A DNA stretch of 61,171 bases, from contig JAFDAJ010000025.1 of NCBI GenBank assembly GCA_019313915.1, positions 1 to 61,171 of the forward strand, written 5' to 3'. Position numbers and translations under genes: made by a program. Below, piece by piece: positions 5,446-23,399 of the stretch. Source of the stretch: Deltaproteobacteria bacterium. GTDB taxonomy: Bacteria > Myxococcota_A > Polyangia > Polyangiales > Houyiibacteriaceae. The notes under the pieces are model-generated. The model ran no database searches. It was not told the origin of the DNA and was given only the letters and a program-made list of their open reading frames with translations. The first letter of the stretch is position 1. The number at the start of each line of letters is the position of its first letter.

Positions 5446-7156
5446 GCGCCGGCGCCCTACCCGGTGGATGACCGGTGCCGCCGCCCTCGTCGCGGCTGCC
5501 CTCCTCCTCGGTTGGGTGATCGCTAACTTCCCAAGAGCGCCCATCGGCCCCCGTTACGTCGGCGCCGGGCACCAGACCCCTCGATCTGGCGGAACATTCA
5601 TCTTCGCGGCTGGGAGCAACATCCACACGCTCGACCCGCACTTCGCCTACGACACTCTGTCGACCGCGGCGTGCAGACTGCTTTACGACGGACTGCTCGA
5701 CTACGACTACGACGGAAACATGATTCCTGGTCTCGCGGCCGAGCTCCCCAAGATGTCCGACGGAGGCAGGAGTTTTCGCTTCACCCTGCGCAACGGCATC
5801 AAGTTCCACAACGGTCGTGAAATCACGGCTGAAGACATTTCGTGGTCGTTGCACCGCTTGCTGTCCGAGCGAATCGGATCGCCTGGCTATCCGTTTTTCA
5901 AATCGATCCAAGGGGCGCCGGCGTACCACAGAGGAGAAGCGGATCGCGTCGAGGGCATCGTCGTCCTCGATGAAAAGACAATCGAGTTCCATCTCGACGA
6001 AGCCGACCAAACATTTCTCAACGCGCTGGCGATGCCATTCTCGTACCCACTCGCCAAGGAGCACGTCGAGAAGCTCGAGCAAGCCGAGGGGCGCGACGCG
6101 GTCGGGCGCCACCCAGTCGGATCAGGGCCGTTTACTTTCTCACGCTGGGAGCGCGGCGTGCAAGTCGAGTTCGAGCGCTTTGAAGAGTACTGGGCACCGC
6201 AGGCACGCCCCGACCGAATGATCTTCCTCGAGAACATCTCGTCCGACGTCGCGAGCGCACGCTTTCGCAACGGCGACCTAGACGTCGTCTACCGCCCCAG
6301 TAAAGTAACCCGGTTGTTCCTGAGAGCGTCCGAGGCCTGGGCTCCCTATCGGGCCGAGTCACCGAGCGCCTCGGTGTTCGCGCTGGGCCTCAACTGCGAG
6401 CTACCCCCGTTTGACGACGTGCACGTCCGCCGCGCCGTGGCCTTTGCGCTCGACCGCTCAAAGCTAGAGCGGCTCGACCCGGGTCAGGTGATCGCCGCGA
6501 CTCAGATTCTGCCCCCAATGCTCGCGCCGCACGATCCCGAGCTGCCGACGCGACAGGGGTTCGACCTCGAGCGGGCCAAGGAAGAAATGCGCTTGGCCGG
6601 CTTCCCGGACGGGCTGATCGAGCCGGTCACTCTGTGGGTGAGAGGCGAAGGTGAGGTGCGTGCCGCGCAGCTGTTCCAACAGGACCTCAAGGCGATCGGC
6701 ATCGAGATCGAGCTCAAGATGGTCTCCTTCGCAACCTACCTGAAGGAGACCGGCCGGCCGCGAGTCGCCCAAGCTGCGTTCACGGGTTGGCACCAGGACT
6801 TCCCCGATCCGTCCAACTTCATGGACATCTTGTTCCACAGCCGCTCGATCCATCCCGAGAACTCCGAAAACCGCTCGTTCTACCGAAACCCGAAGCTCGA
6901 CGCGATCCTCGACCGCGCGCGCCCGGAGATCGACCGAGAGGCCCGGCTCGCGCTCTACGCGCAGGCCAATGCAATCCTGGCGGACGAGGCGCCCTGGGCG
7001 TTCCTCTACTACCCGATCGACATGTTTGCCTGGCAGCCATACGTGAAGGGCTTTCGCCCGCACCCCGTCTGGCTGAACGAATACCGCAACGTGTGGCTCG
7101 ATCTCCCCAGGGAGCGCGTCAGTCAGTCGATCTACGAACAGGAGACGGGCCCATGA
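5423..7156 (+). CDS. Peptide ABC transporter substrate-binding protein (SBP family 5)
   Basis: TLDP, LYDGLL, FTLRNGIKFHNG, PVGSGPF, PFDDVHVRRAV; start at ATG 5423 or 5468. Confidence 0.92.
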   Translation: MRSTPRTERRRPTRWMTGAAALVAAALLLGWVIANFPRAPIGPRYVGAGHQTPRSGGTFIFAAGSNIHTLDPHFAYDTLSTAACRLLYDGLLDYDYDGNMIPGLAAELPKMSDGGRSFRFTLRNGIKFHNGREITAEDISWSLHRLLSERIGSPGYPFFKSIQGAPAYHRGEADRVEGIVVLDEKTIEFHLDEADQTFLNALAMPFSYPLAKEHVEKLEQAEGRDAVGRHPVGSGPFTFSRWERGVQVEFERFEEYWAPQARPDRMIFLENISSDVASARFRNGDLDVVYRPSKVTRLFLRASEAWAPYRAESPSASVFALGLNCELPPFDDVHVRRAVAFALDRSKLERLDPGQVIAATQILPPMLAPHDPELPTRQGFDLERAKEEMRLAGFPDGLIEPVTLWVRGEGEVRAAQLFQQDLKAIGIEIELKMVSFATYLKETGRPRVAQAAFTGWHQDFPDPSNFMDILFHSRSIHPENSENRSFYRNPKLDAILDRARPEIDREARLALYAQANAILADEAPWAFLYYPIDMFAWQPYVKGFRPHPVWLNEYRNVWLDLPRERVSQSIYEQETGP

Positions 7157-8154: not shown

Positions 8155-8936
8155 CCCTTTGGCTTGGGCCTCACCGGAAACACCCGGCGCTCTCCGTCAC
8201 TACGCGGCGCGAGCACCTGGAGCGCGTCGATCTTGATCTTCTTTCGGCGCGCGTCCGGGAGCTTGATGATGCAAACACCATCGCCCGTCAGCCCTTCGAT
8301 CTTGCAGAGTCCGAACTTGACGTGCTCGATCCAATCGCCCTTTTCTGGCTTGTACTCCAGGCTTGCAGCGGGCTCTGCGCGGGCGGAGAGCTCCGCTGCC
8401 ATCGCCCAGGTTGCCTCCGTGGGGACTCCCTCAGGAGCCGCGCCGGGAGCTGGCAGCACCTGCGGACCAGCAGCCTGTGCCTCGAGGTTGGCCCAGAGCT
8501 GGAGCCCCGTGGCATCGTCGTGGTCTCGCCGCAGCTCGAGCTCGTCGAAGCAGTCGATGCGAAACTCGAGCGCGAACACCGAACCGTCGACCACGTGGCC
8601 TCCATAGGTGACGTCACGTTCCCCTTCGCGCAGGGAAACCGTTGCGTGGAGATGCCAGAACGGCTCACCGTCACGCTCGGAGAGGTTGCCCTGCATCGAC
8701 AGAAGCTCACATCGCTCGAAACGATGCGCACCTTCGTAGCGTCGATCGGATTGATTGTATTCGGTGAGCTCGATCCATTCGAAGGCGCCGATTGCACTCA
8801 CCCAAGCGGTTCGAAGGCCGTGCTCGTCGACGAGATTGCGAAATGCTTCCTGCAAACCGCTCCCGTGAAAGACTCGACCCACGATGTGCCGCGACGCGCT
8901 CGCCTCCACCGACGACGTTCCCTTCGGCACAGTCAC
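8151..8936 (-). CDS. DUF296/PPC-domain protein with extra C-terminal Tudor-like domain
   Basis: SAIGA, ELLSMQGNL, HLH and GGH motifs of DUF296; C-terminal KGDWIEHVKFGLCKI. Confidence 0.75.
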   Translation of the reverse strand: MTVPKGTSSVEASASRHIVGRVFHGSGLQEAFRNLVDEHGLRTAWVSAIGAFEWIELTEYNQSDRRYEGAHRFERCELLSMQGNLSERDGEPFWHLHATVSLREGERDVTYGGHVVDGSVFALEFRIDCFDELELRRDHDDATGLQLWANLEAQAAGPQVLPAPGAAPEGVPTEATWAMAAELSARAEPAASLEYKPEKGDWIEHVKFGLCKIEGLTGDGVCIIKLPDARRKKIKIDALQVLAPRSDGERRVFPVRPKPKG

Positions 8937-9577
8937 GGCGTCGCTTGTGTCAGACGCTCTTCCTTCGCGTCGACCGCATCGACGAAGAGCTTGAAGTACT
9001 CACCGCCGCTCAACAAAGCCAAGGCTAGGCTAAAATAGAGAAGCACTAGCCCAACCTGCGCAAAATCGAACTCGGTTTGGTAGAACCCGAAGTAGATCGT
9101 GTACCGCTGATGCACGATGAGCATTAGTATCGCGACCATCTGCAAGGCGGTCTTGTCCTTGCCGGTCCGCATCGCGGCCATCACGACCCCTTCGCTCATC
9201 GCGATCGTCCGAAGCGCCGTGACGGCGAACTCTCGCGCGAGCATGATGATCACCGCGACGACACCGAGGAACGGCATGCGGCCGAGGTACGCGAGGAAGA
9301 TGAGCGTCGCCATCACGAGGAGCTTGTCCGCTAGTGGGTCGAGGAACTTTCCCAGCACGCTGATCTGGCCCCACTTGCGAGCGAGATAGCCATCTATGAG
9401 GTCGGTGAGCGCGGTCCCGATGTAGAGCATTGCTGCCCAGAAGTTCGCCCTAGGCGTGCCATCCCAGAGGAGCCACAGCACTCCAGGGATCAGCGCGATC
9501 CGGAGCATGGTCAACAAGTTGGGCAGATTGAGCGCGTCGTCCCGGATCGACGTTCGCTTGGGCGGGGCCTCTTCCAT
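8933..9577 (-). CDS. pgsA: CDP-diacylglycerol--glycerol-3-phosphate 3-phosphatidyltransferase
   Basis: NLPNLLTMLRI; TDLIDGYLARKWGQISVLGKFLDPLADK. Confidence 0.93.
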   Translation of the reverse strand: MEEAPPKRTSIRDDALNLPNLLTMLRIALIPGVLWLLWDGTPRANFWAAMLYIGTALTDLIDGYLARKWGQISVLGKFLDPLADKLLVMATLIFLAYLGRMPFLGVVAVIIMLAREFAVTALRTIAMSEGVVMAAMRTGKDKTALQMVAILMLIVHQRYTIYFGFYQTEFDFAQVGLVLLYFSLALALLSGGEYFKLFVDAVDAKEERLTQATP

Positions 9578-9632: not shown

Positions 9633-9863
9633 CTACGGGTGAATTTCAGGGGCGCCATCCATCTCGCGGATCTTGCGGCGAAGCCACCAGATGAAGCCGC
9701 CTATCATCATGAGAGGCACGATCGTCAAGAAGACCGTTGTGTCGACGAACGCCTGCCGGTTCTCCTCGAGCGGCGATGCGCACGACGGACACGCATAGGC
9801 CAAGTCGGCTGCCCAGGTTACAGCGACCACGGCGGCTGCGAGAGCCACTCGAGCCAAACGCAT
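9633..9863 (-). CDS. Small exported/membrane protein with CPSC motif (76 aa), last gene of the oxidase operon
   Basis: ATG overlaps the upstream stop (TGATG); signal peptide AYA|CPSC, one C-terminal TM helix. Confidence 0.75.
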   Translation of the reverse strand: MRLARVALAAAVVAVTWAADLAYACPSCASPLEENRQAFVDTTVFLTIVPLMMIGGFIWWLRRKIREMDGAPEIHP

Positions 9864-10453
9864 CACAGGTAGACCTGCCAGTAGAGAATGGGCCAAACAC
9901 CCACGACGAAGTACCAGAAGACCTGCGCCGGCCAGAACGTGAAGCGATCCAGGTCGTCGTGCAGCAGCTTGCGGTATGTGTAGAGCAGGATGATGAACCC
10001 GGCAACGACGTGAAGTGCGTGGGTTCCCACTAGGAGATAGAAGAAGCCACCCAACTGCCCTGAAGTAACCGTCAGACCCTCGCCGATGAGCGCGACCCAC
10101 TCAGCGCCCTGAAACACGACGAAGAAGCCACCGAGGACGATCGAAATCAACAAGAGCCGCTTGGTCTTGGCGTCCCCACGCTTGAAAGCCCGATTGGCAA
10201 AGTACAGCGCGACGCCGCTCGCGAGCAGAGCCGCCGTATTGAGGGCTGTCTCCTCGACCGGCAGACGCGGTTGTCCGGGCGGAGGCCAGCCTCCAATGGC
10301 GTTGCTCTTGCCGATGACGAAGGCGCTGATCAGGCCGGAGAAGAACATGATCTCCGTGGCCACGAAGATCAGCATACCGAGCACACCGTTCGGGAGGACT
10401 GGCTCGCGCCTGGCGGGCACGCTGTAAGGGAGACCTAGTGCATCATCAGGCAT
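9863..10453 (-). CDS. Heme-copper oxidase subunit III family protein (second copy)
   Basis: GMLIFVATEIMFFSGL, NTAALLASG, GTHALHV, FWYFV. Confidence 0.9.
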   Translation of the reverse strand: MPDDALGLPYSVPARREPVLPNGVLGMLIFVATEIMFFSGLISAFVIGKSNAIGGWPPPGQPRLPVEETALNTAALLASGVALYFANRAFKRGDAKTKRLLLISIVLGGFFVVFQGAEWVALIGEGLTVTSGQLGGFFYLLVGTHALHVVAGFIILLYTYRKLLHDDLDRFTFWPAQVFWYFVVGVWPILYWQVYL

Positions 10454-10471
10454 GGGCTATTCCTCCTTTCC

Positions 10472-10903
10472 TCAGTGCGCGGCGTCGTCGTGTCCCTCGG
10501 CGTGCTCGCCGTGTGGGTCCTTGCCCTCGGCCTCGAGCGCTCGCTCGACCTCGGCTGCGGCTGCGACGTTTTCCCAGTTCTGGCCCTTGTGCTCCATCAC
10601 ATCTGGGGCGGTACCTGCGAAAAACAGCAACATCAGCATCAACATCGTCGCCAGAAGATACGAGATGTACTTCTTTTCGACGTTGAGGTGCATGAAGTTC
10701 GCTGCAACCAGATACGCCTTGACGAGCGCTATGCCAAACGCGGTCATCAAGGTGATCATCCAGGCCTCGAGGAAGCCAAATGCCACGTGAGGCGCGATGA
10801 TCGGGCCTAGGACACTGAGAATGAGCAGCACGAGTAGAATCGCCCAGATCTTCACGTAGAAAGCCTGACCGTGGTCGCCTGCGTGGTCTTGATGTTCAGC
10901 CAT
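10472..10903 (-). CDS. Cytochrome c oxidase subunit IV family protein
   Basis: YVKIWAILLVL, ALVKAYLVAANFMHL. Confidence 0.88.
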   Translation of the reverse strand: MAEHQDHAGDHGQAFYVKIWAILLVLLILSVLGPIIAPHVAFGFLEAWMITLMTAFGIALVKAYLVAANFMHLNVEKKYISYLLATMLMLMLLFFAGTAPDVMEHKGQNWENVAAAAEVERALEAEGKDPHGEHAEGHDDAAH

Positions 10904-10915
10904 GATCGTCAGCCC

Positions 10916-11494
10916 TCACTTGGCGATGTAGAGCAGGGGGAAGAGGAAAATCCAGATGATGTCGACGAAGTGCCAGTAGATCCCGATCAACTCGACCCGG
11001 TGGAGCTCTTTGCCCTTCCGCGCGTCGTTGGCGATGATCAGCATGATGATGCAACCCGCAATGACGTGGAGCCCATGGAGCCCCGCAGCGGTGTAGTAGA
11101 AGTGCCAAAACCCGTTGGCGGTGATGGTGTAACCGTGCTGAATCTCGCCGGTCCATTCGACCGCCTTGACGCAGATGAAGACCAGGCCGCCGGCGCACGT
11201 GCCCAGCAGCCACTTGGCGGCCTTCTTGCCATCTCCTTGCTCGGCCGCGTGGTGCGCGAGCACTGCAAACAGCGATGAGGTCAGCAGCACGAACGTGTTG
11301 GTGGCGCCGAACCAGGTGTTGGTGTGCGAGGCGTACTCGGCCCACTCGGGGTGCCCTAGCCGGTGCATGACGTAGGAAGCGAGCAATCCGCCGAAAATCA
11401 CGATTTCCGAACCGATTACCCACCAAACGGCGAGCTTGCCGGTCGGGATGCCTGTGGCGCTTCTGGTAGTTGCTATGGGTCTAGTCGTGCTCAT
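10916..11494 (-). CDS. coxC: Cytochrome c oxidase subunit III
   Basis: From ATG 11494 (MSTTRP); WWVIGSEIVIFGGL, NTFVLLTSS, GLHGLHV, YWHFVDIIWIFLFPLLY. Confidence 0.92.
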   Translation of the reverse strand: MSTTRPIATTRSATGIPTGKLAVWWVIGSEIVIFGGLLASYVMHRLGHPEWAEYASHTNTWFGATNTFVLLTSSLFAVLAHHAAEQGDGKKAAKWLLGTCAGGLVFICVKAVEWTGEIQHGYTITANGFWHFYYTAAGLHGLHVIAGCIIMLIIANDARKGKELHRVELIGIYWHFVDIIWIFLFPLLYIAK

Positions 11495-11504
11495 CGGTGC
11501 CTCG

Positions 11505-13226
11505 TCATTCGGCGGGGGCTGTGTCCGGTGGGACGTCTTGCGGCCAGTAGTCCTCTTCGCGACCTGGCACGCTGTACTCGTAAGGACCTCGGTAGCAGTT
11601 GGGAAGCTCGGCCCAGTTGCCATGAGGCGGCGGCGAGGTCGTGGTCCATTCGAGGGTGTTCGCCTTCCACGGGTTCTTCCCGGCAGGCTTACCCTTGAAC
11701 ATACTGTAAAAGAAGTTGAACAGGAACACGGCCTGGAAGGCAAGCATCACCAAGAGGGCCGTCGTGGCGAACACGCGGAGGCCCTGCATGTCCGCTAGGT
11801 CTGGGAAGTTCTGATAGTTGTAGATTCGTCGGTGCTGACCCGCTGTGCCCAGGATGAACAGCGGAATGAAGATGCTGTTGAAGGCAGCGATCGTGCCCCA
11901 GAAGTGAATCTTCCCGAGGGTCTCGTTCATCATCCGTCCGAACATCTTCGGGAACCAATACGTGATCCCCGCCAAGAAGCCGATAATGGCGATTGGGAAG
12001 AACGTGTAGTGGAAGTGTGCGAGCACGAAGTACGTGTCGTGGAAATAGATGTCCGAGCCGCTCGCGCCGAGGAAGATGCCCGTGATGCCGCCAATCATGA
12101 ACTCAGCAATGAACGCCAGCGCCCAGAGCATCGGCGTGGTGAGCCGAATCGAGCCGCCATAGAGCGTCGCGATGTACAAGAAGATCATCTCAGCAATGGG
12201 AATCGAGATGATCAGCGTGGTGATCGTAAAGACGTTCGCCATACGCGGGTCGATGCCGGCGACGAACTGGTGGTGAGCCCACACGAAGAAGCTGATTATG
12301 GCCGTGGCGAATACCGTGTAGAGGATCAGCTTGTAGTTGAAGAGCTTCTTGCGCGAGAAGGTGCAGATGATCTCGGCCACGATGCCAATCGCAGGCAGGA
12401 ACACGACGTAGACCTCCGGGTGCCCGAAGAACCAGAAAAGGTGCTGCCACAGAATCGGGTCACCGCCGCGTCCGGGATCGAAATAGCCAGTGCCGACGAC
12501 CTGGTCCATGAAGAGCATCACGGCACCCGCAATGAGCGGACCGACGGACGCCATGAAGAGGACGCTGGCGACGACGATCATCCACAGCACCATCGGGATG
12601 TCGTACATCTTCATGCCGGGCGCGCGCGCGTTCATCAGCGTGGTGATGAAATTGATGCCACCGAGCAGGAAGGCCACGAACTCGAGCGCAACGGCGACGA
12701 GCCAAAGCGTCGAACCAAGCGGCGTGAGGCTGTACTCCGCGCTCGAGGAGAGAGGCGGATACGCGGTCCATGCGCCGCCAAAGCCGCCCCCGGGAACGAA
12801 CAGCGAGCCGATGAGCACGAGCGCACTGACCAGGAATATCTGATACGACAGCCGGTTGATGCGCGGGAACACCATGTCGTCAGCGCCTATCATCAACGGG
12901 ATCAGGTAGTTGCCGAACGCCGCGATCAACATGGGCATCGCCACCCAGAAGATCATGATCGTGCCGTGATTGGTGACCAGGGCGTTGTATTCACCCTGCG
13001 ACACGAGGCCATAACCCGGCACGCTTTGGCCCGGGAACGCCAGCTGCATTCGAAACGCATACGACATGTAGCCGCCGATCAGGGCCATCACGATGCCTGT
13101 GAACATGTACTGCATCGCGATCATCTTGTGATCGGTGGAGAAGATGTACTTGCTCCAGAAGCCCTGCTCGTGGTGTGCGTCGTGCGCGTGTGCGCCGTGT
13201 GTCTCTGCTGTGCCTGCTTCAGCCAT
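11505..13226 (-). CDS. coxA: Cytochrome c oxidase subunit I, A1-type motif, atypical K-channel
   Basis: STDHK, HGTIMIF, WFFGHPEVY, WAHH, HDTYFVLAHFHY, HRR; start ATG 13226. Confidence 0.97.
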   Translation of the reverse strand: MAEAGTAETHGAHAHDAHHEQGFWSKYIFSTDHKMIAMQYMFTGIVMALIGGYMSYAFRMQLAFPGQSVPGYGLVSQGEYNALVTNHGTIMIFWVAMPMLIAAFGNYLIPLMIGADDMVFPRINRLSYQIFLVSALVLIGSLFVPGGGFGGAWTAYPPLSSSAEYSLTPLGSTLWLVAVALEFVAFLLGGINFITTLMNARAPGMKMYDIPMVLWMIVVASVLFMASVGPLIAGAVMLFMDQVVGTGYFDPGRGGDPILWQHLFWFFGHPEVYVVFLPAIGIVAEIICTFSRKKLFNYKLILYTVFATAIISFFVWAHHQFVAGIDPRMANVFTITTLIISIPIAEMIFLYIATLYGGSIRLTTPMLWALAFIAEFMIGGITGIFLGASGSDIYFHDTYFVLAHFHYTFFPIAIIGFLAGITYWFPKMFGRMMNETLGKIHFWGTIAAFNSIFIPLFILGTAGQHRRIYNYQNFPDLADMQGLRVFATTALLVMLAFQAVFLFNFFYSMFKGKPAGKNPWKANTLEWTTTSPPPHGNWAELPNCYRGPYEYSVPGREEDYWPQDVPPDTAPAE

Positions 13227-13237
13227 GCCTATTCCGT

Positions 13238-13978
13238 TCAGCGGGAAGCGAGCTTGCCCGTGCTGCTCTGCGACATCCAAGCCGCGTGTTCTTCAGGGGT
13301 TTCGACGACGATGCGCGCGCCCATGATGCCGTGCCCAATCCCGCACATCTCAGCACACTGAATGTCGTACTCGCCGGCCCTCGTGGGCTTGAACCAACCC
13401 TTCATGATACGGCCCGGAATCGCGTCCTGCTTCAGACGGAACACCGGAACCGAGAAGTCGTGCAGGACGTCCTTGGAAAGGAGCTCGTAGTGGTAGGTCG
13501 TGCCCTCTTGGACGTGGAGTTCGTTGAACGTGATGATGTCGTCATCCGTGTCGAGCTCGTTGTCGGGACCGGGGTGAACGAAGTTCCATGCCCACTGCTG
13601 TGAGATGATGCGAATCGTGCTGTCCGCCTCGGGAAGACGTTGCTTGATGTTGTACCAAACCATGATCGCCATGAAGACGATGACCAAATCGCAGACGATG
13701 ATCGCCGCGTGCGGATAGGTAATCCATCGCTTGAGATTCTTCTCTTCACCCGTGACGTACTTCGCCTTCTTTCCCTTCTTCTCGCGGAAGCGGAAGATTA
13801 GGAAGAAAAACGCGGCATAGGCGAGAAGGGCCCAAAAGCCAACCATGACAGCGATGAGCGCAATGAGCGCATCGATGTCGCCGGCAAACGAAGAGCCCAC
13901 CGGCAAGGCTGAACCGACCAGGTAGTCACCCAGCGGCTCGAAGATTCCCTTGATGAAGTCGTAGATTCCTTGGAGCAT
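13238..13978 (-). CDS. coxB: Cytochrome c oxidase subunit II (CuA), no fused cytochrome c
   Basis: QWAW, DVLHDF, CAEMCGIGHGIM; two TM helices. Confidence 0.95.
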   Translation of the reverse strand: MLQGIYDFIKGIFEPLGDYLVGSALPVGSSFAGDIDALIALIAVMVGFWALLAYAAFFFLIFRFREKKGKKAKYVTGEEKNLKRWITYPHAAIIVCDLVIVFMAIMVWYNIKQRLPEADSTIRIISQQWAWNFVHPGPDNELDTDDDIITFNELHVQEGTTYHYELLSKDVLHDFSVPVFRLKQDAIPGRIMKGWFKPTRAGEYDIQCAEMCGIGHGIMGARIVVETPEEHAAWMSQSSTGKLASR

Positions 13979-13994
13979 TCGACCCTCTACCCAG

Positions 13995-14105
13995 TCAGTT
14001 CAGAATGAAAGCAAAGACGACACCGGCATAGACGAGAACGCTAATCATGGTCCACTTCCACCAAAAAAAGGCCTCGCTGTCGGGATCCCGTGTTTTACCA
14101 GCCAT
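13995..14105 (-). CDS. Small single-TM protein (36 aa) MAGKTRDPDSEAFFWWKWTMISVLVYAGVVFAFILN
   Basis: Manually translated; fills the gap in the operon; GAGGG RBS upstream. Confidence 0.7.
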   Translation of the reverse strand: MAGKTRDPDSEAFFWWKWTMISVLVYAGVVFAFILN

Positions 14106-14123
14106 CTCTCAAACCCTCGCAAA

Positions 14124-14780
14124 CTATTCAGATAACGTGCCAATGTAGGCGATGACGTCTTTCATCGCCTGTTCGGTGGGCAACGTCATGGAGAACGGTC
14201 GCATCTTCGCCCCCGTGATGTCGTCCGCATGTGTGCCTCGCACGCCGGCCTTGAAGTTCTGGAGCTGCGTGAGCAGGTACCAGTCGCTCGCGCCGGCCAA
14301 TGGCGGACCAAACTCATCGATGTTCCCGCGCGCGTCGGCTCCGTGGCATTGCACGCAGGTAGCAAAGTAGATCTTGCCCGTCTGGGGATTGCCGCCCTCG
14401 AGAGTGGGCGCTGGGTTCGTGCGCGGTAGACTGGCTACGTAGGCCGCAATGATGTCGACTTTCTCGTCCGTGTCCATCGTCATGGCCATCGGCAGCATTC
14501 GCTTGCCGGCCATGTCGTCCAGGTGCCAGCCGCGCTGGCTCTTCTTGAACTTACGGAGCTGTGCCTTGATGTACCAACGCTCGAGGCCACCAATCGCAGG
14601 CGCAGCGAGGTCTTGATTGCCTTCGCCGTTCTCGCCGTGACACTGCACGCAGCCGTCATAGAGGTCCACGCTATACTTCAGGCTGGCTTTGTCCGGGCTC
14701 GGGTCCTCGCACGCCGTCAGCAGAAACGACAGTGTCAACACGAGGCCCATCACCGCACCGGTGCGTACGTCGGTCATCAT
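14124..14780 (-). CDS. Diheme cytochrome c4-like lipoprotein
   Basis: Lipobox LTAC; two CVQCH motifs, internal repeat (YIKAQL/YLLTQL), Met ligands; AGGAG RBS before ATG 14780. Confidence 0.9.
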   Translation of the reverse strand: MMTDVRTGAVMGLVLTLSFLLTACEDPSPDKASLKYSVDLYDGCVQCHGENGEGNQDLAAPAIGGLERWYIKAQLRKFKKSQRGWHLDDMAGKRMLPMAMTMDTDEKVDIIAAYVASLPRTNPAPTLEGGNPQTGKIYFATCVQCHGADARGNIDEFGPPLAGASDWYLLTQLQNFKAGVRGTHADDITGAKMRPFSMTLPTEQAMKDVIAYIGTLSE

Positions 14781-14782
14781 CG

Positions 14783-15424
14783 TCACTCTCCTAGCGACTT
14801 AAGGTAGGCAATCAGTGCTTCTACCTCCTGCTCGGGGAAATTGTAAGGGGGCATCGTCTTGCCGTAGCCCTGAACGACTTGGTCCCAAGAGTTCTTGATC
14901 GAGTCGGCGAGGTACGCTTCGTCAGCGACGACCGTCTCGCCGCTGACCAAGAGGCGGTCCGTACCAAAGATACCCTTCCAGTTCGGACATGGCTGCTGCT
15001 TCTCTCCGTCGACCGAGTGACAGGCCATGCACCCCTTGCTGTTGCTGAGCTTCTGTCCCCAGCAAGCCATCGGGTCCGCAGCGCCTGTGCACTCGGGCGG
15101 CATCGTGACCTCACCAGGCGCCACCGGTGCCGCACCCTTGAACGACCAACCGTTCACCGCGGATTCGTCGTCGGAAGGCCGTGGGGCGAGAGCTGGAAAG
15201 TCCGCGCGCGGCTTTGCCGTGTACTCCGCCATCGCCTGCCCGATCGGAATCGTGCCGCCTTCGAGCGCCGCTTCTTGCTCCCTCAAAATGATATCGCGCT
15301 CGTCGTCGGGAGACGGCGCTCTTGCCGAGTCTGCTTGGCCGCAGCCCACCCCGAAAGCCATCAAGACCGTGAAGGCCACCAGGACTCGGAGGGGTGCAAA
15401 TCGTGTGTTCTGCTTCGTACTCAT
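14783..15424 (-). CDS. ActG-like lipoprotein fused to a monoheme cytochrome c
   Basis: Lipobox GVGC; IPIGQAM segment; CMACH..VVADEAYLADSI..VVQGY..MPPY. Confidence 0.8.
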   Translation of the reverse strand: MSTKQNTRFAPLRVLVAFTVLMAFGVGCGQADSARAPSPDDERDIILREQEAALEGGTIPIGQAMAEYTAKPRADFPALAPRPSDDESAVNGWSFKGAAPVAPGEVTMPPECTGAADPMACWGQKLSNSKGCMACHSVDGEKQQPCPNWKGIFGTDRLLVSGETVVADEAYLADSIKNSWDQVVQGYGKTMPPYNFPEQEVEALIAYLKSLGE

Positions 15425-15434
15425 CCGTGCACGC

Positions 15435-16814
15435 TCAGTATATTTGGTGGAGGTGAAGGCTCCGCTGAAGCCGTGGATCGCCGACGGGCAACAACGGGAC
15501 CCTCCCGAGCTGCCAAAAGACATACGCAAAGAAGACGCCGCCAACGAACAGCAACGCGCCTACGTCCGCAAGCTGAACCTGGAAGCCTCCCGCCTGCGGC
15601 ATGATGAACCAGTAGATGTCCACGATGTGCATGAAGATTACCCAGAAGCACATCACCTGGAGCCAACGAAGCGCCCGTTTCTGTACGCGCGAAATCAGCA
15701 GGAGGAAGGGCGCGACGAAGTGGCCGAAGACCAGCAGGTAAGAGACGAACATCCAGCCCCCCTCCCAGCGCTTGTGGAACCAAGTGGCCTCTTCTGGAAT
15801 GCCCGCGTACCAAATCAGCATCCACTGCGAGAACTGGACGTAGCTCCAGAAGCAGACGAAGCCAAACATGAGCCTGCTGAGATCGTGGAAGTGCTCGATG
15901 TTGATGGCGTCGCCGACCAGGCCACGCTTGTAGAGGCTCAGGCCGATGAGAATCGTCAGGGCCAGGATCGCTACGGCTGATCCTGCAAAGATGATCACAC
16001 CGAAGATCGTCGAGAACCACGCCGCCTCGAGCGACATCAGCCAATCGAACGCGGCAAAGGTGAGCGAGAGCGCAAAGAGGATCAGCGCCGGCGCTGCCAA
16101 TCTTTGCATCCGCAACGTATGCTTGGGGTCGCGATCGTCGTCCTGGCGCCTGGACCAGCCGAAGTACGCAAGGGCGATCAGGCACCAGATGATGAGGTAG
16201 CCGATGCCGCGAGCGGCCCAACCATTGGTGTTCAGGTATCCGGTCTTCTCGCTGATAATCTGGTGGTGGAGCGCAACTTCCTGCGACGTATGGGCATGCT
16301 CTTCTTCGTGGGCTGTCTCGTCGGCGCCGGCGTCGCTGCCGTGGTCTTGCGCATACGCGACGCTTGCGCCCATCTCCAACGTGCCGTGCTCGTCGGACGG
16401 AGAGTCTGACTCAGACGCGGAGTCCCCGTGATCGTCGCCGTGCTCGCCGTGGGCAGCAGCGCTCTGCCACTCGTCGTAGATGTTGATCTTACCGAGCGCC
16501 ACGCCCCCGATGAACGGAAGCGCCAACAGAGCGACGACTGGCGCACCGGACATGACAACCTCGACGATGCGTCGCGACGACACGCCCCAGTACGAAGCTG
16601 TCAGGAACTGAACCAGCACCAGGAAGAGTCCGCCGAGCATGAAGGTAGCCGTCGTGAATAGGCCGAACAGGTACGCGTAGCCCAGCCTGTCCGCGTCGGC
16701 GGTCAAGATCGCAACCAGGCCGCCGGCAATGGCAAGCACGAGAGGCGCGACCCAGGCGCGCGACCAGAAGGCGTCGTTTCCGACCCGATAATCCTTTTTG
16801 TTCGCTTCCGTCAC
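15435..16814 (-). CDS. actF: Alternative complex III subunit ActF
   Basis: GTG overlaps actE stop; AFDWLMSL..WFSTIFG, HFHDLSRLMFGF, FSQWMLIWYAGIPEE; His-rich insert. Confidence 0.9.
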   Translation of the reverse strand: MTEANKKDYRVGNDAFWSRAWVAPLVLAIAGGLVAILTADADRLGYAYLFGLFTTATFMLGGLFLVLVQFLTASYWGVSSRRIVEVVMSGAPVVALLALPFIGGVALGKINIYDEWQSAAAHGEHGDDHGDSASESDSPSDEHGTLEMGASVAYAQDHGSDAGADETAHEEEHAHTSQEVALHHQIISEKTGYLNTNGWAARGIGYLIIWCLIALAYFGWSRRQDDDRDPKHTLRMQRLAAPALILFALSLTFAAFDWLMSLEAAWFSTIFGVIIFAGSAVAILALTILIGLSLYKRGLVGDAINIEHFHDLSRLMFGFVCFWSYVQFSQWMLIWYAGIPEEATWFHKRWEGGWMFVSYLLVFGHFVAPFLLLISRVQKRALRWLQVMCFWVIFMHIVDIYWFIMPQAGGFQVQLADVGALLFVGGVFFAYVFWQLGRVPLLPVGDPRLQRSLHLHQIY

Positions 16815-17431
16815 TGGGGTTGCTCCGTGTTCCCGGCCACGCTTGCTGGTGCTTGACTCAGCTGCAGCGCGCGGACGTACTGAACGATGGCCCATCGGTC
16901 GTCGACAGGGAGGTTGTGGGCGTACGACGGCATGTTGCGCACGCCGTTGGTAATGGTCGCGAAAATCTGACCGTCGGGAACGTGGCGCAAGCGATCGTCG
17001 TGAAAGGTCGGAGCGACCATACCGGGTGCTCCCAACTGTGCCGCGCGACGCGACACCATGCCCTTGCCATCGCCAGAATAGGAATGGCAGGGAGCACAGA
17101 AAATGTCGTAACGATCCCGCCCGCGCTCGAGGAAGGCCCCGTTGCCGCCGTGCGCCGCGATGAGCCTAGGTGGCACTTCCAACACGTACCCTTCGTCTGC
17201 TGCGCGCCCAGTGGCCCACGTTAGCGAACGTTCCATCTCCCTCGAAACCGTTCCCTCGACCCCCGGCCGCATCGAGCGCTGGTCCGCAAAGAACGGCTGC
17301 CGCTCCTGCGTGTCGTACCGGGGCTGGTTGTACATGTTGCGGATGCCGACGACCGGCGGCTCGCCACTCTCGGCTCCGATGCATCCGGTGGCCAACGTCG
17401 CAAAAGCCAGTGTGATGAGAAGAGCCCGCAT
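16811..17431 (-). CDS. actE: Alternative complex III monoheme cytochrome c lipoprotein ActE
   Basis: Lipobox ATGC; MYNQPRY, FFADQRSMR, YDIFCAPCH, DRWAIVQYVRALQ. Confidence 0.92.
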   Translation of the reverse strand: MRALLITLAFATLATGCIGAESGEPPVVGIRNMYNQPRYDTQERQPFFADQRSMRPGVEGTVSREMERSLTWATGRAADEGYVLEVPPRLIAAHGGNGAFLERGRDRYDIFCAPCHSYSGDGKGMVSRRAAQLGAPGMVAPTFHDDRLRHVPDGQIFATITNGVRNMPSYAHNLPVDDRWAIVQYVRALQLSQAPASVAGNTEQPQ

Positions 17432-18009
17432 CACCGCACCTCCTCCTCGATGAGCTCGAGAGAGATCGGGTCGGTCGCCTCCAGAAGCGCCTTGGTGCCG
17501 TCGAGGTTGAACTTCTGGTCGCCTACTTCGATCGAGATGAAGAACCTGTCGTCCGATGCCGCTTCGAATCGCTCTGACTCGAAGATCGGGTGGTTGTGCC
17601 GTGGCAACTTGATGATAGCCAGCAAGCCAAAGAAGGTCGAAAGGCCGCACAGGAGAATGCCGAGCTCGAATATGATGGGCACCATCGAAGGGAACGCTCC
17701 GGGTGGCTTGCCACCAACGACGAGCGGATAGCCCGCGCCGATGTTCAGCAAGTTGAACGAGAACGCGTTCGTGTAGTTCATCATGAACACCGCGGTCGCG
17801 AGACCGATCATGCCGAAGATGAACGAGATGTAGCCGATTCGAGTCGGCTTGAGCCCCATTGCTTCGTCCATGCCGTGCATGGCGTACGGGGTGTGGCAGT
17901 CCCATTTCTGGTAGCCCGCGTCGCGCACCCTCATCGCGGCCCGCGCGATTGCATTCGGCGTACCGTATTCGGCCAGGTAAAGAGCAGGCTTTTTTGTTTC
18001 GTTAGCCAT
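17431..18009 (-). CDS. actD: Alternative complex III subunit ActD (DUF3341)
   Basis: DAGYQKWDCHTPYAMHGMDEAMG, YPLVVGGKP, PIIFELGIL, DDRFFISI. Confidence 0.92.
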   Translation of the reverse strand: MANETKKPALYLAEYGTPNAIARAAMRVRDAGYQKWDCHTPYAMHGMDEAMGLKPTRIGYISFIFGMIGLATAVFMMNYTNAFSFNLLNIGAGYPLVVGGKPPGAFPSMVPIIFELGILLCGLSTFFGLLAIIKLPRHNHPIFESERFEAASDDRFFISIEVGDQKFNLDGTKALLEATDPISLELIEEEVR

Positions 18010-18017
18010 GATTCGCC

Positions 18018-19489
<1,472 letters not shown>

Positions 19490-19495
19490 TGGTTC

Positions 19496-22400
19496 TTACC
19501 CATTTCCCTTCAGCTTGGGGTTTGGGTTTCGGATGCGCGCAAGGAACGAGGTTCGGGGTCGTGTGCCGATTTCGGCAAGGAGCTTGTAGTTGCGGTTGAC
19601 TGCCAACCACCTGGCCACCGTGCTCTTCGGGTCATTGAGGTCGCCAAACGCGATCGCCCCCGTCGGGCAGGCTTGCTGGCACGCGCTCTTGATATCGCCG
19701 TCCTTGAGCTTGCGGCCTTCCCGCTTGACGGCGATCTTCCCTTCTTCGATGCGCTGTACGCAGTACGTGCACTTCTCCATCACGCCGCGCATGCGGACGG
19801 TGACATTGGGGTTGAACTGAAGCTTCCTGGACTCGGGGAACTCTTCGAACCAGCCGAACTCGTCGTCCAAGTGGCCGTGCCAGTCGAGGTAGTTGTAGCG
19901 GCGAACCTTGTACGGGCAGTTGTTCGCGCAGTAACGAGTGCCGACACACCGGTTGTAGGCCATGTCGTTGAGGCCCTCGGGTGTGTGTGTCGTCGCGTTG
20001 ACCGGGCACACGTTCTCACACGGCGCTTCCTCGCACTGCTGGCACGTGACCGGCTGCACTGCGACATCAGGATTGTTTGGGTCGTCCCCGACGAAGTAGC
20101 GGTCGATGCGAAGCCAGTGCATCTCGCGACCGCGCTCCACCTCGAACTTGCCGACCGCGGGGATGTTGTTCTCCGACTGGCATGCAATGACACAAGCGTT
20201 ACAGCCTGTGCACCCGTTGAGGTCGATCGCCATGCCCCACTTGTAGCCCTCGCTGTAGTCCTGCTGCTTCCACAGCGGAGGCGTGCTCACGGGGTCGACC
20301 GACCGGTAGGAAGCGAAGTCGGGCTCCTTCTTGTACTCGTCGAGCGTCGCGTCGATGGCGATCGGGCGACCTTCCATGCGATCGTGCGTCTGCGTCTGAA
20401 CCAGGGTGTACGCCTCGCCAAGCACCTCGATGGTCACGCCGTCCGTGAAGTCCATGCCATCGCTGGTGCGAAGCGGATTGACGTCGAAGCCCTTGCCATT
20501 GCCGTAGCGTCCCGCGGCGGTGCGCCCCCAACCGAGCGTCAGCGTCACGCAGTAGTCGGCGTGTCCGGGGACGATCCACGCCGGGACTTCGACCTTGGCG
20601 TCGCCCTTGGTGAGGCGAAGCATTTGGCCCTTCTTCACGCCGAGCGCCTCGCTGGTTGCAGGCGAGATGAGTGCCGCATTGTCCCAAACCAGCTTCGTCA
20701 TCGGGCTAGGCAGCTCGAGCGCCCACAGGTTGTTCGCATGCGCGCCGTCCCATAGGGCCGGATCCGGCTCGAAGCTCACCTCGAGGTTGTCCTTGCTAAC
20801 CGTCTGTCGAGTCCGGAGGAGGAGGAGCGTTTCGACAAGCTTGGCGAAACTCATCGGCGGCTTGCTCTGCGAGGGGTTCAGCAGAACACCGGTGTGAAGG
20901 GCGCGTCGCCAGATGGCATCAGCGTTCAGATCCGCGGGCGAAACTCCAAAGTCGAGCAGCGCCTTCGTATCCTTGCTGATCTGGGAAGCTTGGGTCTCCC
21001 GAACGATGTCATGGCCGCTGGTAGTCTTGTCGCCAGCCAGAGCTGCTAGGAACTCTATCTCGCTTCGGCCCCCATAGAGAGGCGCGATCAGCGGCTGCTG
21101 GATCGCGACCGAGCCGTCCAGTGACTGTTGATCTCCCCAGGTCTCGAACTCGTGCGTGAGTGGCGCGTGCCAAGAGCAGAGCTCCGAGGTCTCGTTGCGA
21201 TGGGTCGAAAGATGGACCGATGTGAGTCCTTCTCGGCCGAGGAGGTCGGCAAACTTCACGTCCGCAGGCGCGTCGTACGCGGGGTTGCCGCCCAGCATGA
21301 CGAGCGACGAGATCGCCTCGGCATCTTTCGCCAACTCCGTGATGCCCGCACGACTGGTAGAGTCGTCGGTATCGATGGCGGAGCCGAAGAACGTGGTCGC
21401 GCCGAAGTTGCCAAGCGCGCCGTTGATGACGGTCGCGAGCGCGTGGACGTAGGCGGGCTGACCTGCGCCGGCAATCACCATCGAGCGGCCCGCGTTTTGC
21501 AGCAGGTCGTCGGCGAGCGGGGTTAGCCATGTCAGATCCAACCCCTCCAAATCCGCGCTACCACTGCCTCTTTGGACGATGTCGGCGACCTGTTTGAGGC
21601 TGTCGACTCCGCGTGCCGCAAGAACGAACATCAATACCCGCGCGAACCAGCCAATATCAGCCTGAGGCATGCGCAGCCGGTGGTCGGCCATGGTTCCCGT
21701 CACCGTGAGATTCGACTCGACAACGTAGAGTCGGCTCATGGGCGCATCTGGGGACACTATGCCACGCGTCTGGGCGAATCGGCGCCCCGCGGCCACAGCG
21801 CCCGGCTCGGAGCCCAGGAAATCCGCCCCCAGTGAGAGAGTCACCATCGATCTCGAATGATCGTAGAACGGAACGCTCGGCACTCCCTGCATCAGCATCC
21901 GAGCGCCTTCGCGCGCGTTGTCATCGTTGATCGGGCTGTACGTGTGGAAGCGCGCCTTGGGGAACTTCTCGACCACCTTGCCGCGCATCCGCCGGAATGA
22001 TGGGCTGTTCGAAATCGGCGCAAGGAAGCGAAGACCAGCGCCCTCGTCCCCCTTGTGCTTTGTGACCAGCGCCTTCAGCGCTTTGTCGAAATCCGCGTCG
22101 GTGACGTTCGCAAGTGCGTTGCCGCGACGCTGCGCGGGCGATTGAGAACGGTCCGGGTCGTACAGATCCCAGATGTAGGCCTGCGCCCGAACGTCTGTAC
22201 CGCCAAGGCTCCTCGTGTGCTGCTCGTTGCCCTCGACCTTGGTCGGGCGACCGTCGTGATTCGTCACCACGACTCCGAGTGAATCGCGACCACGCGAAGT
22301 CACCGTCGCGAAGTGCGAGGGGACGCCGGGAACCAAGTACTCCGGGGCCTTGCTGTAAGGCAGGATCTCATTTTCGGGACGGCGAACACAGCCCTGAAGG

Positions 22401-22612
22401 CCTGCGGCCAGCGCAGCTATCGATGAGCCCTGCACGAACGAACGACGTGAGACGAGCGCTTTCGGGCTCAAGAGGTCGGTGAGGAAGCCGCCTGGCTGCT
22501 CTTCCTCTGCGAGCTGCTGAAGCTCTCGCGGATCGGCATTCTTGTCCTCGAGCATCCGCCACATCGACCGACCTTTACCCGGACTCAGCTCATATGGTTT
22601 TCTGCGGGTCAT
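19496..22612 (-). CDS. actB: Alternative complex III subunit ActB (molybdopterin-fold plus Fe-S domains)
   Basis: Tat motif SRRSFVQ; GRPTKVEGN; [44 protein letters not shown]. Confidence 0.95.
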
Positions 22613-23247
22613 CGGTGGCACCCCGAACAATGCTCAGGTGGATTGAGGGCGGCGGCGATTTCGGCGCGCTGAGCGACCCAAGCCTCGTCGGCTTCCCACT
22701 TCATATTGGTGACCTCACTCTTTGGTCGAATGTGTGGCTCCGGATTGCGGTGACACTCCAAGCACCACTGCATCGCGAGCGGCGCGACGACCCCAACGAC
22801 CTCCATCTGGTCGACACGGCCGTGGCAAGAGGCGCAGCCCACACCTGCTCTGACATGGGCGCTGTGATTGAAAAACGCGTGGTCCGGAAGCTGGTGGACG
22901 CGAACCCACGCAAGCGACTCGTCGGTCTCCCAGCTCTCCCGTACCGGCGCCAGCTTCTCCGACTCGGCGTGCACGACCGCGTGGCAGCCCATGCATGTCT
23001 GCGTCGGCGGCACCATCGCTTCGTGCGAGCGCTCTACCTGGGAGTGGCAATAGCGACAGTCCATGCCGAGCTCGCCGGCATGCAAACGGTGGCTGTAGTC
23101 AACGGGCTGCTTCGGCGTGTAGCCAACCTGGAGGTTGGGCGGGGTGAAGTAGACCCAAAACAAAAGGAACACGCCTCCTCCGAGTCCGCCGGCCACGACG
23201 GCCAGCGCGAGGGGCAAGGAGTTCAACTCGCGGGGGAAAATCTGCAT
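22609..23247 (-). CDS. actA: Alternative complex III pentaheme cytochrome ActA
   Basis: Five CxxCH motifs (CRYCH, CMGCH, CASCH, CLECH, CSGCH); QPVDYSHRLHAG; one N-terminal TM. Confidence 0.95.
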   Translation of the reverse strand: MQIFPRELNSLPLALAVVAGGLGGGVFLLFWVYFTPPNLQVGYTPKQPVDYSHRLHAGELGMDCRYCHSQVERSHEAMVPPTQTCMGCHAVVHAESEKLAPVRESWETDESLAWVRVHQLPDHAFFNHSAHVRAGVGCASCHGRVDQMEVVGVVAPLAMQWCLECHRNPEPHIRPKSEVTNMKWEADEAWVAQRAEIAAALNPPEHCSGCHR

Positions 23248-23399
23248 GCTGCGTTTTCTCTTGAGTCCTCTAAACGACCGGCCGCCATTTAGGCGAAGCA
23301 CGGGGGTCGGACAAGCCAGTTCGTCATTTTTTGACGAACAACATCCAGGCGGCGTTCGCGCAGCAGCACTGCACTCGACTTCTTCTTCTCCCTGCGGGC

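Follow-up and report, generated by a model that had tools for sequence, protein, structure and literature searches.

A predicted chimera of an ActG-like protein and the heme c domain of CoxB, encoded between alternative complex III and an A1-type oxidase cassette in a genus of the Polyangiales

The gene examined here (14783–15424, minus strand, as are all window coordinates given below unless stated otherwise) encodes a protein of 213 amino acids and lies within a 61,171-nucleotide stretch of DNA, hereafter the window, from Deltaproteobacteria bacterium (Polyangiales; Houyiibacteriaceae; assembly GCA_019313915.1, contig JAFDAJ010000025.1). Its ATG start codon is situated 10 nt past the stop codon of actF (15435–16895), the last core gene of alternative complex III (ACIII). 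Comparison with related loci shows the predicted protein to be a chimera of two genes that are separate in the ancestral ACIII-caa3 cluster of the family, namely a small actG-like gene and the gene encoding the heme-bearing subunit II, coxB. In this genus the locus no longer contains sco, the A2-type coxA-coxC-coxIV genes or those portions of the old coxB that encoded its membrane and CuA parts; instead, an A1-type aa3 oxidase cassette is present, with the fusion gene on one side and the conserved downstream flank on the other. Taken as a whole, the explanation preferred here, comprising the chimera, the replacement of the oxidase and the origin and function proposed below, is considered quite probable.

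The parental parts can be followed along the fusion protein. Residues 1–28 (15341–15424) form a predicted signal peptide ending in the lipobox FGVG-C28, whereas residues 40–95 (15140–15307) hold an ActG-like periplasmic motif region (LxxGxxPIxQAM ... R ... PSxDxSAxxGWSF), with IPIGQAM at residues 59–65. Residues 96–107 (15104–15139; KGAAPVAPGEVT) constitute the junction, which is predicted to be disordered and which the alignment places after the last position in common with ActG-like proteins (GWSF) and ahead of the first in common with CoxB (MPPEC). The remainder, residues 108–213 and the stop codon (14783–15103), comprises a linker with two cysteines (MPPEC112 ... AC121WG) and a class I heme c domain with CMACH at residues 132–136 (C132MAC135H136), as well as VVADEAYLADSI, VVQGY and TMPP. 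Hence the features that an initial annotation had ascribed to the gene after actF, i.e. a lipobox, IPIGQAM, CMACH, VVADEAYLADSI, VVQGY and MP, are all present on the minus strand. Alignment of 24 members of the fusion family, with overall identity down to 37%, revealed that Cys28, Cys132, Cys135 and His136, both linker cysteines, and residues A64, R73, S84, D86, S88, G92 and W93 of the ActG-like block are invariant, and that Met191 and Gly27 are nearly so. The presence of an invariant Cys28 after a hydrophobic signal peptide agrees with the familiar lipobox pattern on which the lipoprotein call was based. Since the heme ligands, the lipobox cysteine, the linker cysteines and seven ActG-like residues do not vary, both halves of the protein are judged to be under constraint. 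An AlphaFold model built on 24 relatives, with a mean predicted local distance difference test (pLDDT) score of 66.8, comprises helices at residues 42–55 and 61–70 (pLDDT 74–82), a disordered stretch at 82–100, within which residues 86–100 score below 50, and a cytochrome fold at 110–213.

Scans of genome and metagenome collections identified 48 loci with a full-length fusion gene, labelled as metagenome-assembled genomes of Sandaracinaceae, Polyangiales or Myxococcales. The gene actF is located upstream of the fusion gene in 46 of these, the other two starting at a contig edge, and a gene for a cytochrome c4-like protein is directly downstream in 47. Indeed, the order actF-fusion-c4-coxB is kept in 48/48 loci where the flanks reach, bar one downstream exception, a metagenome contig (L174) in which a reverse-strand open reading frame of 305 amino acids (5875–6792), with the look of an IS200/REP-associated transposase, replaces c4 behind the fusion gene. 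This exception could represent a rearrangement or an assembly join. The same loci bear on the idea that the fusion gene is a decaying remnant of a deletion and has no present function. The reading frame is, however, intact in all 48 loci at identities of 55–100%, the 24 aligned members show no variation in the heme ligands, the lipobox cysteine or the ActG-like motif, and the start and stop are tightly coupled to the neighbouring genes; a functionless remnant is, accordingly, scarcely credible.

The identity of the C-terminal half was examined by searches against domain, structure and genome data. Pfam returned PF00034 (Cytochrom_C) with an expectation value (E) of 1.4e-11, and the best match of the heme domain among solved structures was 1W2L, from subunit II of the Rhodothermus marinus caa3 oxidase (E 5e-17, 41% identity), the next match being at 4e-4. 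Similarly, 1W2L was the sole Foldseek match at E <= 0.001 (E 2.3e-6, template modelling score 0.83, root-mean-square deviation 2.0). The domain, which has the CxxCH motif and distal methionine of class I cytochromes, is assigned by sequence and fold to the caa3 subunit II type, though it is situated outside any subunit II: the protein has no COX2 domain to which it could be attached in the manner of a CoxB C-terminus. In other genera, the best matches to residues 107–213 proved to be the C-termini of CoxB-heme c frames of 320–490 amino acids. A tree was calculated from 103 heme domains (105 columns), with support from the Shimodaira–Hasegawa-like approximate likelihood ratio test (SH-aLRT) alone, in which 18 of 19 fusion domains form one group (89) nested among the CoxB domains of the same family and of two neighbouring families (88, 89). 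When the 19 fusion domains were all held together as one clade, the approximately unbiased (AU) test did not reject the resulting tree (p 0.46). The two-cysteine linker, counted with the pattern C-x(5-10)-CWG, agrees with the tree, being present in 37/37 fusions, in 18/20 CoxB proteins of the family (the other two having shifted variants) and in 2/4 CoxB proteins of other families, as opposed to 0/61 heme domains of other lineages. These comparisons show the predicted C-terminal half to consist of the two-cysteine linker and heme c domain that sister genera have on the C-terminus of CoxB.

A heme domain recruited from a stand-alone cytochrome c with a lipid or helix anchor, and not from CoxB, is distinctly unlikely on the same data. 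Such cytochromes are common, and many are proteins of 120–250 amino acids with a lipobox and a low-complexity tether whose identity to the C-terminal half of the fusion protein (44–50%) is about that of CoxB. However, none of the stand-alone cytochromes inspected has the two-cysteine linker, the short matches that do bear it (P0146, P0160 and P0195) are N-terminally truncated fragments of CoxB, and the tree groups the fusions with the CoxB domains of the family. Descent of the domain from an ancestral CoxB, rather than from a stand-alone group, had been proposed in the initial annotation and is upheld.

The N-terminal half was compared with the stand-alone proteins of 126–230 residues that follow actF in related clusters. 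These share an N-terminal transmembrane helix, the motif F-x-S-Y-F, a variable stretch, a conserved block (L..G..PI..AM..LA..GR....AP.PS.D..A..GW) and a low-complexity tail. A profile constructed from 28 such proteins, with the fusions excluded, was run on 42,188 stop-to-stop open reading frames of at least 60 amino acids from the window's genome, and the fusion gene was the sole significant match (E 3.4e-13, over the conserved block), the next frame being at 0.065. The ActG-like character first suspected from the IPIGQAM segment is therefore recovered by a search with this domain, and the profile search detected no separate copy of the ActG-like gene in the genome. The fusion protein shares the motif region of this unnamed Polyangiales family but not its N-terminal transmembrane helix; the helix and F-x-S-Y-F are absent from all aligned fusions, which have the lipobox there instead. 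The label 'ActG-like' rests on gene position and not on the founding ActG sequences of R. marinus and Chloroflexus, and the Chloroflexota clusters fetched were without a recognisable actF-actG pair. Searches with a profile of 18 ActG-like proteins against solved structures and Pfam gave chance-level matches on the transmembrane helix only, and in a protein atlas an ActG-like profile found only clusters annotated as 'hypothetical protein'.

Two further groups of proteins touch on this family. In Archangium gephyra (L147:8545-9345 and L133:8553-9269), the gene after actF encodes a small one-helix protein with G-W ... IPIERAIE, which resembles the PIE-x-AM block of the Polyangiales proteins, but with the order relative to GW reversed. 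Additionally, two database proteins, P0218 (222 amino acids, on a 1-kb contig) and P0210 (221 amino acids), combine an N-terminal transmembrane helix and a PI-x-EAM-like or IPVAVAKEM segment with a heme domain of the same kind; they have no two-cysteine linker and may be independent ActG-like-heme fusions.

Next, the distribution of the fusion was examined in 301 genomes drawn from the order, including one that is unpublished (G143) and on which no conclusion depends by itself; of the 301, 260 had some match to the fusion protein. Among the matches listed, 45 cover both halves; beyond the window's genome, these come from 42 of the 54 other members of the genus (55–88% identity), and the best match outside the genus covers residues 109–212 only. 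Among the genera sampled, the fusion was thus seen in that of the window alone. Five of the genus genomes without a match to the fusion were inspected, three of which (G053, G122 and G158) were without actF, whereas in two (G002 and G200) actF is cut by a contig end, and none of the five displays the older arrangement described below. The first three, which are 94–100% complete by marker genes, had no match to ActF, the fusion protein or the cassette CoxA, and the whole ACIII-aa3 locus may have disappeared from part of the genus.

The older arrangement was revealed by fetching 20 loci around the best matches to the C-terminal half, one from each of 20 genomes that represent 14 further genera of the family. 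In 18 of the 20, the order is actB-C-D-E-F, actG-like, sco, coxB-heme c, A2-type coxA, cox3 and coxIV, with a phosphatidyltransferase gene further down in several, and the remaining two are lone coxB-heme c genes. The actG-like gene was matched at E <= 1e-4 in 16 of these 18 loci, the two weaker matches having values of 6e-4 and 3e-3. The same separate-gene order occurs in four other families and in Archangium (class Myxococcia), and corresponds to what the initial annotation gave as the usual myxobacterial order. In a tree of ActC and ActF (925 columns), the genus is placed inside the family (support 100), in a clade (95) with two genomes of the separate-gene order. Because the genus nests in a family with separate genes, and this order is shared by other families and Archangium, the separate genes represent the older state, and the fusion is derived. 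The opposite polarity, in which an older fusion gave rise to the separate actG-like and CoxB-heme c genes by fission, is very improbable. The trees are unrooted, and two distant fusions, P0127 (44% identity; on an ENA contig of 51.9 kb) and P0145 (37%; NCBI MEZ4288829.1, on a 19.8-kb contig), indicate that the fusion family is older than the sampled diversity of the genus, but fission has to contend with the nesting of the genus and with the separate arrangement throughout the loci just described, within the family and beyond it. Scans of genome and metagenome contigs with an alignment led by P0145 returned the window's genus only, at 32–41% identity to P0145.

The oxidase genes behind the fusion have a different affinity. 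The first gene of the cassette (14124–14786) starts with a GTG that overlaps the stop of the fusion gene by 4 nt, and encodes a 220-amino-acid protein with the lipobox LTAC and two CVQCH motifs, in which PF00034 is matched in two stretches and which matches the structure of cytochrome c4 (1ETP, E 2e-12). It has, as cytochrome c4 does, two class I heme c domains, each with CxxCH. A strict pattern detects a lipobox-like motif in 71 of 76 orthologues; LMAC, GGC, GAC, AAC or MAC is found in the remaining five. The next gene, coxB (13238–13978, 246 amino acids), matches COX2 only in Pfam, and TIGR02866, and has the CuA site CAEMCGIGHGIM but no heme domain; its product is 24–29% identical to the CoxB-heme c proteins of sister genera. 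The product of coxA (11505–13280), a subunit I by Pfam and NCBIfam, is 36–38% identical to the A2-type CoxA proteins behind ACIII in sister genera, as against 74–80% to the orthologues in cassettes of other families. Indeed, the window's CoxA and 40/40 cassette orthologues have WFFGHPEVY, as opposed to WFYSHPAVY in 22/22 CoxA proteins of the older arrangement, motifs that are taken here to denote the A1 and A2 types, respectively, by the glutamate of GHPEV in helix VI. No SCO1/SenC match was obtained within the window, and the single match in the genome is on another contig (C386:2087-2494); the fusion cluster is without sco and the genome retains one elsewhere. In these respects, i.e. a CoxB without a heme domain, the lack of sco, an intervening diheme c4-like lipoprotein and a different type of oxidase with its own c4, the locus is as the initial annotation described it.

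Orthologues of the cassette CoxA are distributed patchily within the order, being found in 10/15 genomes of family f3, 6/32 of f22, 9/91 of f17 and a few others, and in the window's own family they are confined to the genus (38/54) and one other genome, G211. The 20 cassette loci viewed outside the genus all have c4, coxB, coxA, cox3 and coxIV, with c4 directly before coxB, and usually end with a second cox3 and a small protein. Their surroundings vary: four loci have a full act cluster followed by an actG-like gene, a gene for a membrane-anchored cytochrome c and the cassette; four have the actG-like and membrane-anchored cytochrome c genes upstream with no act genes in the 6–9.5 kb viewed; in one, actE, the actG-like gene and the cytochrome gene are on the opposite strand; in two, the cassette is directly behind actF; and in nine it stands alone. 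The four loci with no act genes in view (L041, L043, L046 and L048) belong to genus g42 of family f3 and have the order actG-like, membrane cytochrome c, c4 and aa3 cassette; the ActG-like protein therefore travels with the oxidase too, and not with ACIII alone.

In the CoxA tree, the genus (support 100) groups with f3, f19 and one genome of f22 (SH-aLRT 90–91), and G211 falls outside this group. Constraining G211 to join the genus lowers the log-likelihood by 41 units (AU p 0.045), a result that is only suggestive, as the test was framed after the tree had been seen. Since ActC and ActF nest within the family and CoxA groups with other families, the act genes thus follow the family and the oxidase does not, in keeping with the incongruence between act and cox phylogenies that had been predicted. 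Genome G211 has the older cluster and a separate cassette, and therefore the two modules can coexist in the family. In a genome of another family (G028), the end of one contig (C118; L056) carries actA-D, actF, actE, actG-like, membrane cytochrome c, c4, coxB, coxA, cox3 and coxIV, and the start of another (C1; L011) carries a second cox3, the small protein gene, actE, actF, actG-like, sco, coxB-heme c and A2-type coxA. If these contigs join, both oxidase modules seem to lie in a row behind ACIII, with a duplicated actE-actF-actG-like set.

The cassettes of other families raise the question of where the N-terminal half came from. It might have arrived together with the aa3 cassette, from a donor with an ACIII-linked cassette, the heme domain of the resident CoxB being joined to it later and displacing the membrane cytochrome c of the donor. 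In favour of this, the CoxA of the genus groups with those of f3 and f19, whose cassettes carry the actG-like and membrane cytochrome c genes; the actG-like/cytochrome/cassette unit, which four loci have with no act genes in view, may be mobile as a single block; and the core of the N-terminal half has a mean identity of 32.8% to the ActG-like proteins of ACIII-linked cassettes in other families versus 29.1% to those of its own family. Conversely, the best single match to this core is in its own family (41–48%), a weak tree of the core (62 columns) joins 15 of 16 fusions to the family's ActG-like proteins (84) and keeps the f3 and f19 proteins separate (81), and more events are needed than for a deletion in the resident cluster. 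An origin of the N-terminal half in the cassette donor is consequently regarded as unlikely, and a resident actG-like gene as the probable source.

The path preferred here is one in which an ancestor of the genus would have undergone an in-frame loss of approximately 2 kb, beginning in the tail of the actG-like gene, taking in sco and stopping where the CuA domain of coxB ends, by which the actG-like gene would have become joined to the heme-domain end of coxB. Between that heme domain and the downstream flank, the cassette would have taken the place of the old coxA-cox3-coxIV genes, and the anchor of the fusion protein would have switched from a transmembrane helix to a lipobox. In-frame loss is the simplest path; the two events may have come in either order, and the cassette may have been inherited or transferred. 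Several observations weigh against this account or parts of it. No intermediate arrangement was found, and the contexts viewed are those of fusions less distant than P0127 and P0145, the latter of which falls elsewhere in the heme-domain tree with weak support. Placement of the other fusion heme domains has moderate support, i.e. 88–89 by SH-aLRT on 105 columns with no bootstrap, and the N-terminal half of the structural model is of middling confidence. The higher mean identity of the N-terminal core to proteins of other families has been noted above; moreover, because an actG-like gene adjoins the aa3 cassette in four loci with no act genes in view, the ActG-like protein may be tied to the oxidase as closely as to ACIII. 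Finally, heme attachment, acylation, docking and electron transfer are all predictions.

The remaining genes of the locus are arranged with those described above in one long, tightly packed minus-strand row. Upstream of actF are actA (22609–23301), the first in the row of act genes, actB (19496–22630), actC (18018 to about 19300), actD (17431–18021; Pfam ActD, E 1e-55) and actE (16811–17440), whose product has the lipobox LATGC and one CxxCH. The product of actF matched no Pfam model and is identified by gene order and by 36–68% identity to ActF proteins of related loci. Downstream of coxA, the cassette continues with a COX3-like gene (10916 to about 11500), a gene for caa3-type subunit IV (10472–10903) and a second COX3-like gene (9863–10453), all recognised by Pfam or NCBIfam, and is closed by a gene for a small membrane protein with a CPSC motif (9633–9860); the order of these genes (9633–11500) matches that in cassette loci of other families. 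The small protein, which has a signal peptide, the CPSC motif and a C-terminal membrane helix, is kept behind the second cox3 in most cassette loci; it matched no family in Pfam or NCBIfam, and a part in thiol or copper handling would be a guess. The row ends with a gene (8933–9577) whose sequence has the look of a CDP-alcohol phosphatidyltransferase, which is presumably its function, and which, as a conserved flank, adjoins the ACIII-oxidase locus on its downstream side in every arrangement, being found downstream of the oxidase in fusion loci, ACIII-caa3 loci and loci with an ACIII-linked aa3 cassette at 51–84% identity. A pattern scan for promoters and terminators over 13800–15600 found no site in the intergenic gaps. 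Elsewhere in the window's genome there are two further COX1-family matches (G000:C49:562-1851 and G000:C333:2799-4068), one of which has an internal TGA.

With regard to function, it is proposed that the fusion protein would be acylated at Cys28 and docked at ACIII through the retained ActG-like motif, and that electrons would pass from the exit heme of ACIII, on the lipoprotein ActE, to the heme c of the fusion protein, then to the c4 lipoprotein and to CuA of the new oxidase. Each electron carrier on the way from quinol to oxygen would then be held at the membrane by an anchor. Docking by the ActG-like block is a guess. The wider reading, in which the fusion protein would serve as the retained exit relay of ACIII, is inferred because of the invariant residues, because ActE, the fusion protein and c4 all have lipoboxes, and because of both its position and the published mobile hemes discussed below. 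As to position, a helix-anchored cytochrome c is encoded after the actG-like gene and before c4 in the ACIII-linked cassettes of other families, and the heme of the fusion protein thus sits where a tethered cytochrome is the rule.

The mobile heme c that published structures and genetics locate between ActE and the oxidase is borne by different proteins in the systems described. In the R. marinus system it is on CoxB, and the caa3 heme domain is proposed as the electron acceptor from ActE (PMC5928083). The window's domain resembles the R. marinus domain (1W2L) in its fold, in being closest to it in sequence among solved structures, in the position of oxidase genes behind act genes and in the role proposed for it as acceptor from ActE; it differs in being off CoxB and on an ActG-like segment with a predicted lipid anchor, and the window's oxidase is without a heme c of its own and has c4 in between. 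In Flavobacterium johnsoniae, ActE is a lipoprotein and the mobile heme c is on ActA, in a domain said to reduce the oxidase directly (PMC8552683). That system, too, has an aa3 oxidase without its own heme c that is fed by an extra heme c on a protein of the ACIII cluster, but the carrier is a core subunit, whereas in the window it is the ActG-position protein, with c4 encoded in between. ActG itself, in R. marinus and Chloroflexus, is characterised as a seventh, non-essential subunit of ACIII with one transmembrane helix and no cofactor, and as absent from some clusters (PMC5928083). The fusion protein shares with ActG its small size and a position directly behind actF, and differs from it in having a lipoprotein signal and a heme.

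Comparison with other cytochromes is also informative. The fusion protein has the class I heme, N-terminal anchor and flexible linker of membrane-tethered cytochromes c such as cytochrome c_y, Paracoccus c552 and the lipoprotein types, of which P0230, P0225, P0250 and P0252 are examples found here; their tethers are of low complexity, however, whereas that of the fusion protein is structured and conserved, being a motif taken over from a different family of proteins. Cytochrome c4 is a donor to cbb3 oxidases. The c4 of Pseudomonas stutzeri (1ETP) has two class I heme c domains, as does the window's protein, but is soluble, whereas the latter is a predicted lipoprotein and the fixed first gene product of an aa3 cassette. 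In a Chloroflexota genome (G320; L229:7646-8269), an act cluster without a recognisable actF has, behind actE, a gene for a lipoprotein with a low-complexity tether and a heme c of the same type, and coxB-heme c and coxA lie farther along. The pairing of a tethered cytochrome with act genes is thus repeated in other phyla. A full-text literature search, beyond whose reach most subscription journals lie, found no description of the fusion or of a c4-led aa3 cassette behind ACIII. That a bridging heme c is placed on different subunits in different ACIII-oxidase pairs is a known theme, whereas the host protein, the traceable origin in CoxB and the link to an exchange of oxidase were not encountered in that search; as an instance of the theme, the present locus is well supported.

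The lineage is uncultured and the functional claims made here are predictions. With that in mind, the fusion would represent a third solution to the placement of the bridging heme c, which here has moved onto the small protein encoded after actF and has survived a change of oxidase. The locus is a natural example of modular rewiring of a respiratory chain, the history of which is still readable, and it presents a conserved aa3 cassette in which a c4 lipoprotein is invariably included. It also provides a testable hint on the role of ActG-type proteins. In the manner of a 'Rosetta stone', the fusion may signify, as a tentative and rather doubtful proposition, that the ancestral ActG-position protein was a periplasmic adaptor that held the mobile heme c of the oxidase at the exit of ACIII, and that the two were welded together when the oxidase was swapped. 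If this is true, ACIII would have kept its own exit relay and would plug into a foreign aa3 oxidase via the c4 of the latter, ActG would acquire its first function, and electrons would be transferred from quinol to oxygen without a freely diffusing carrier.

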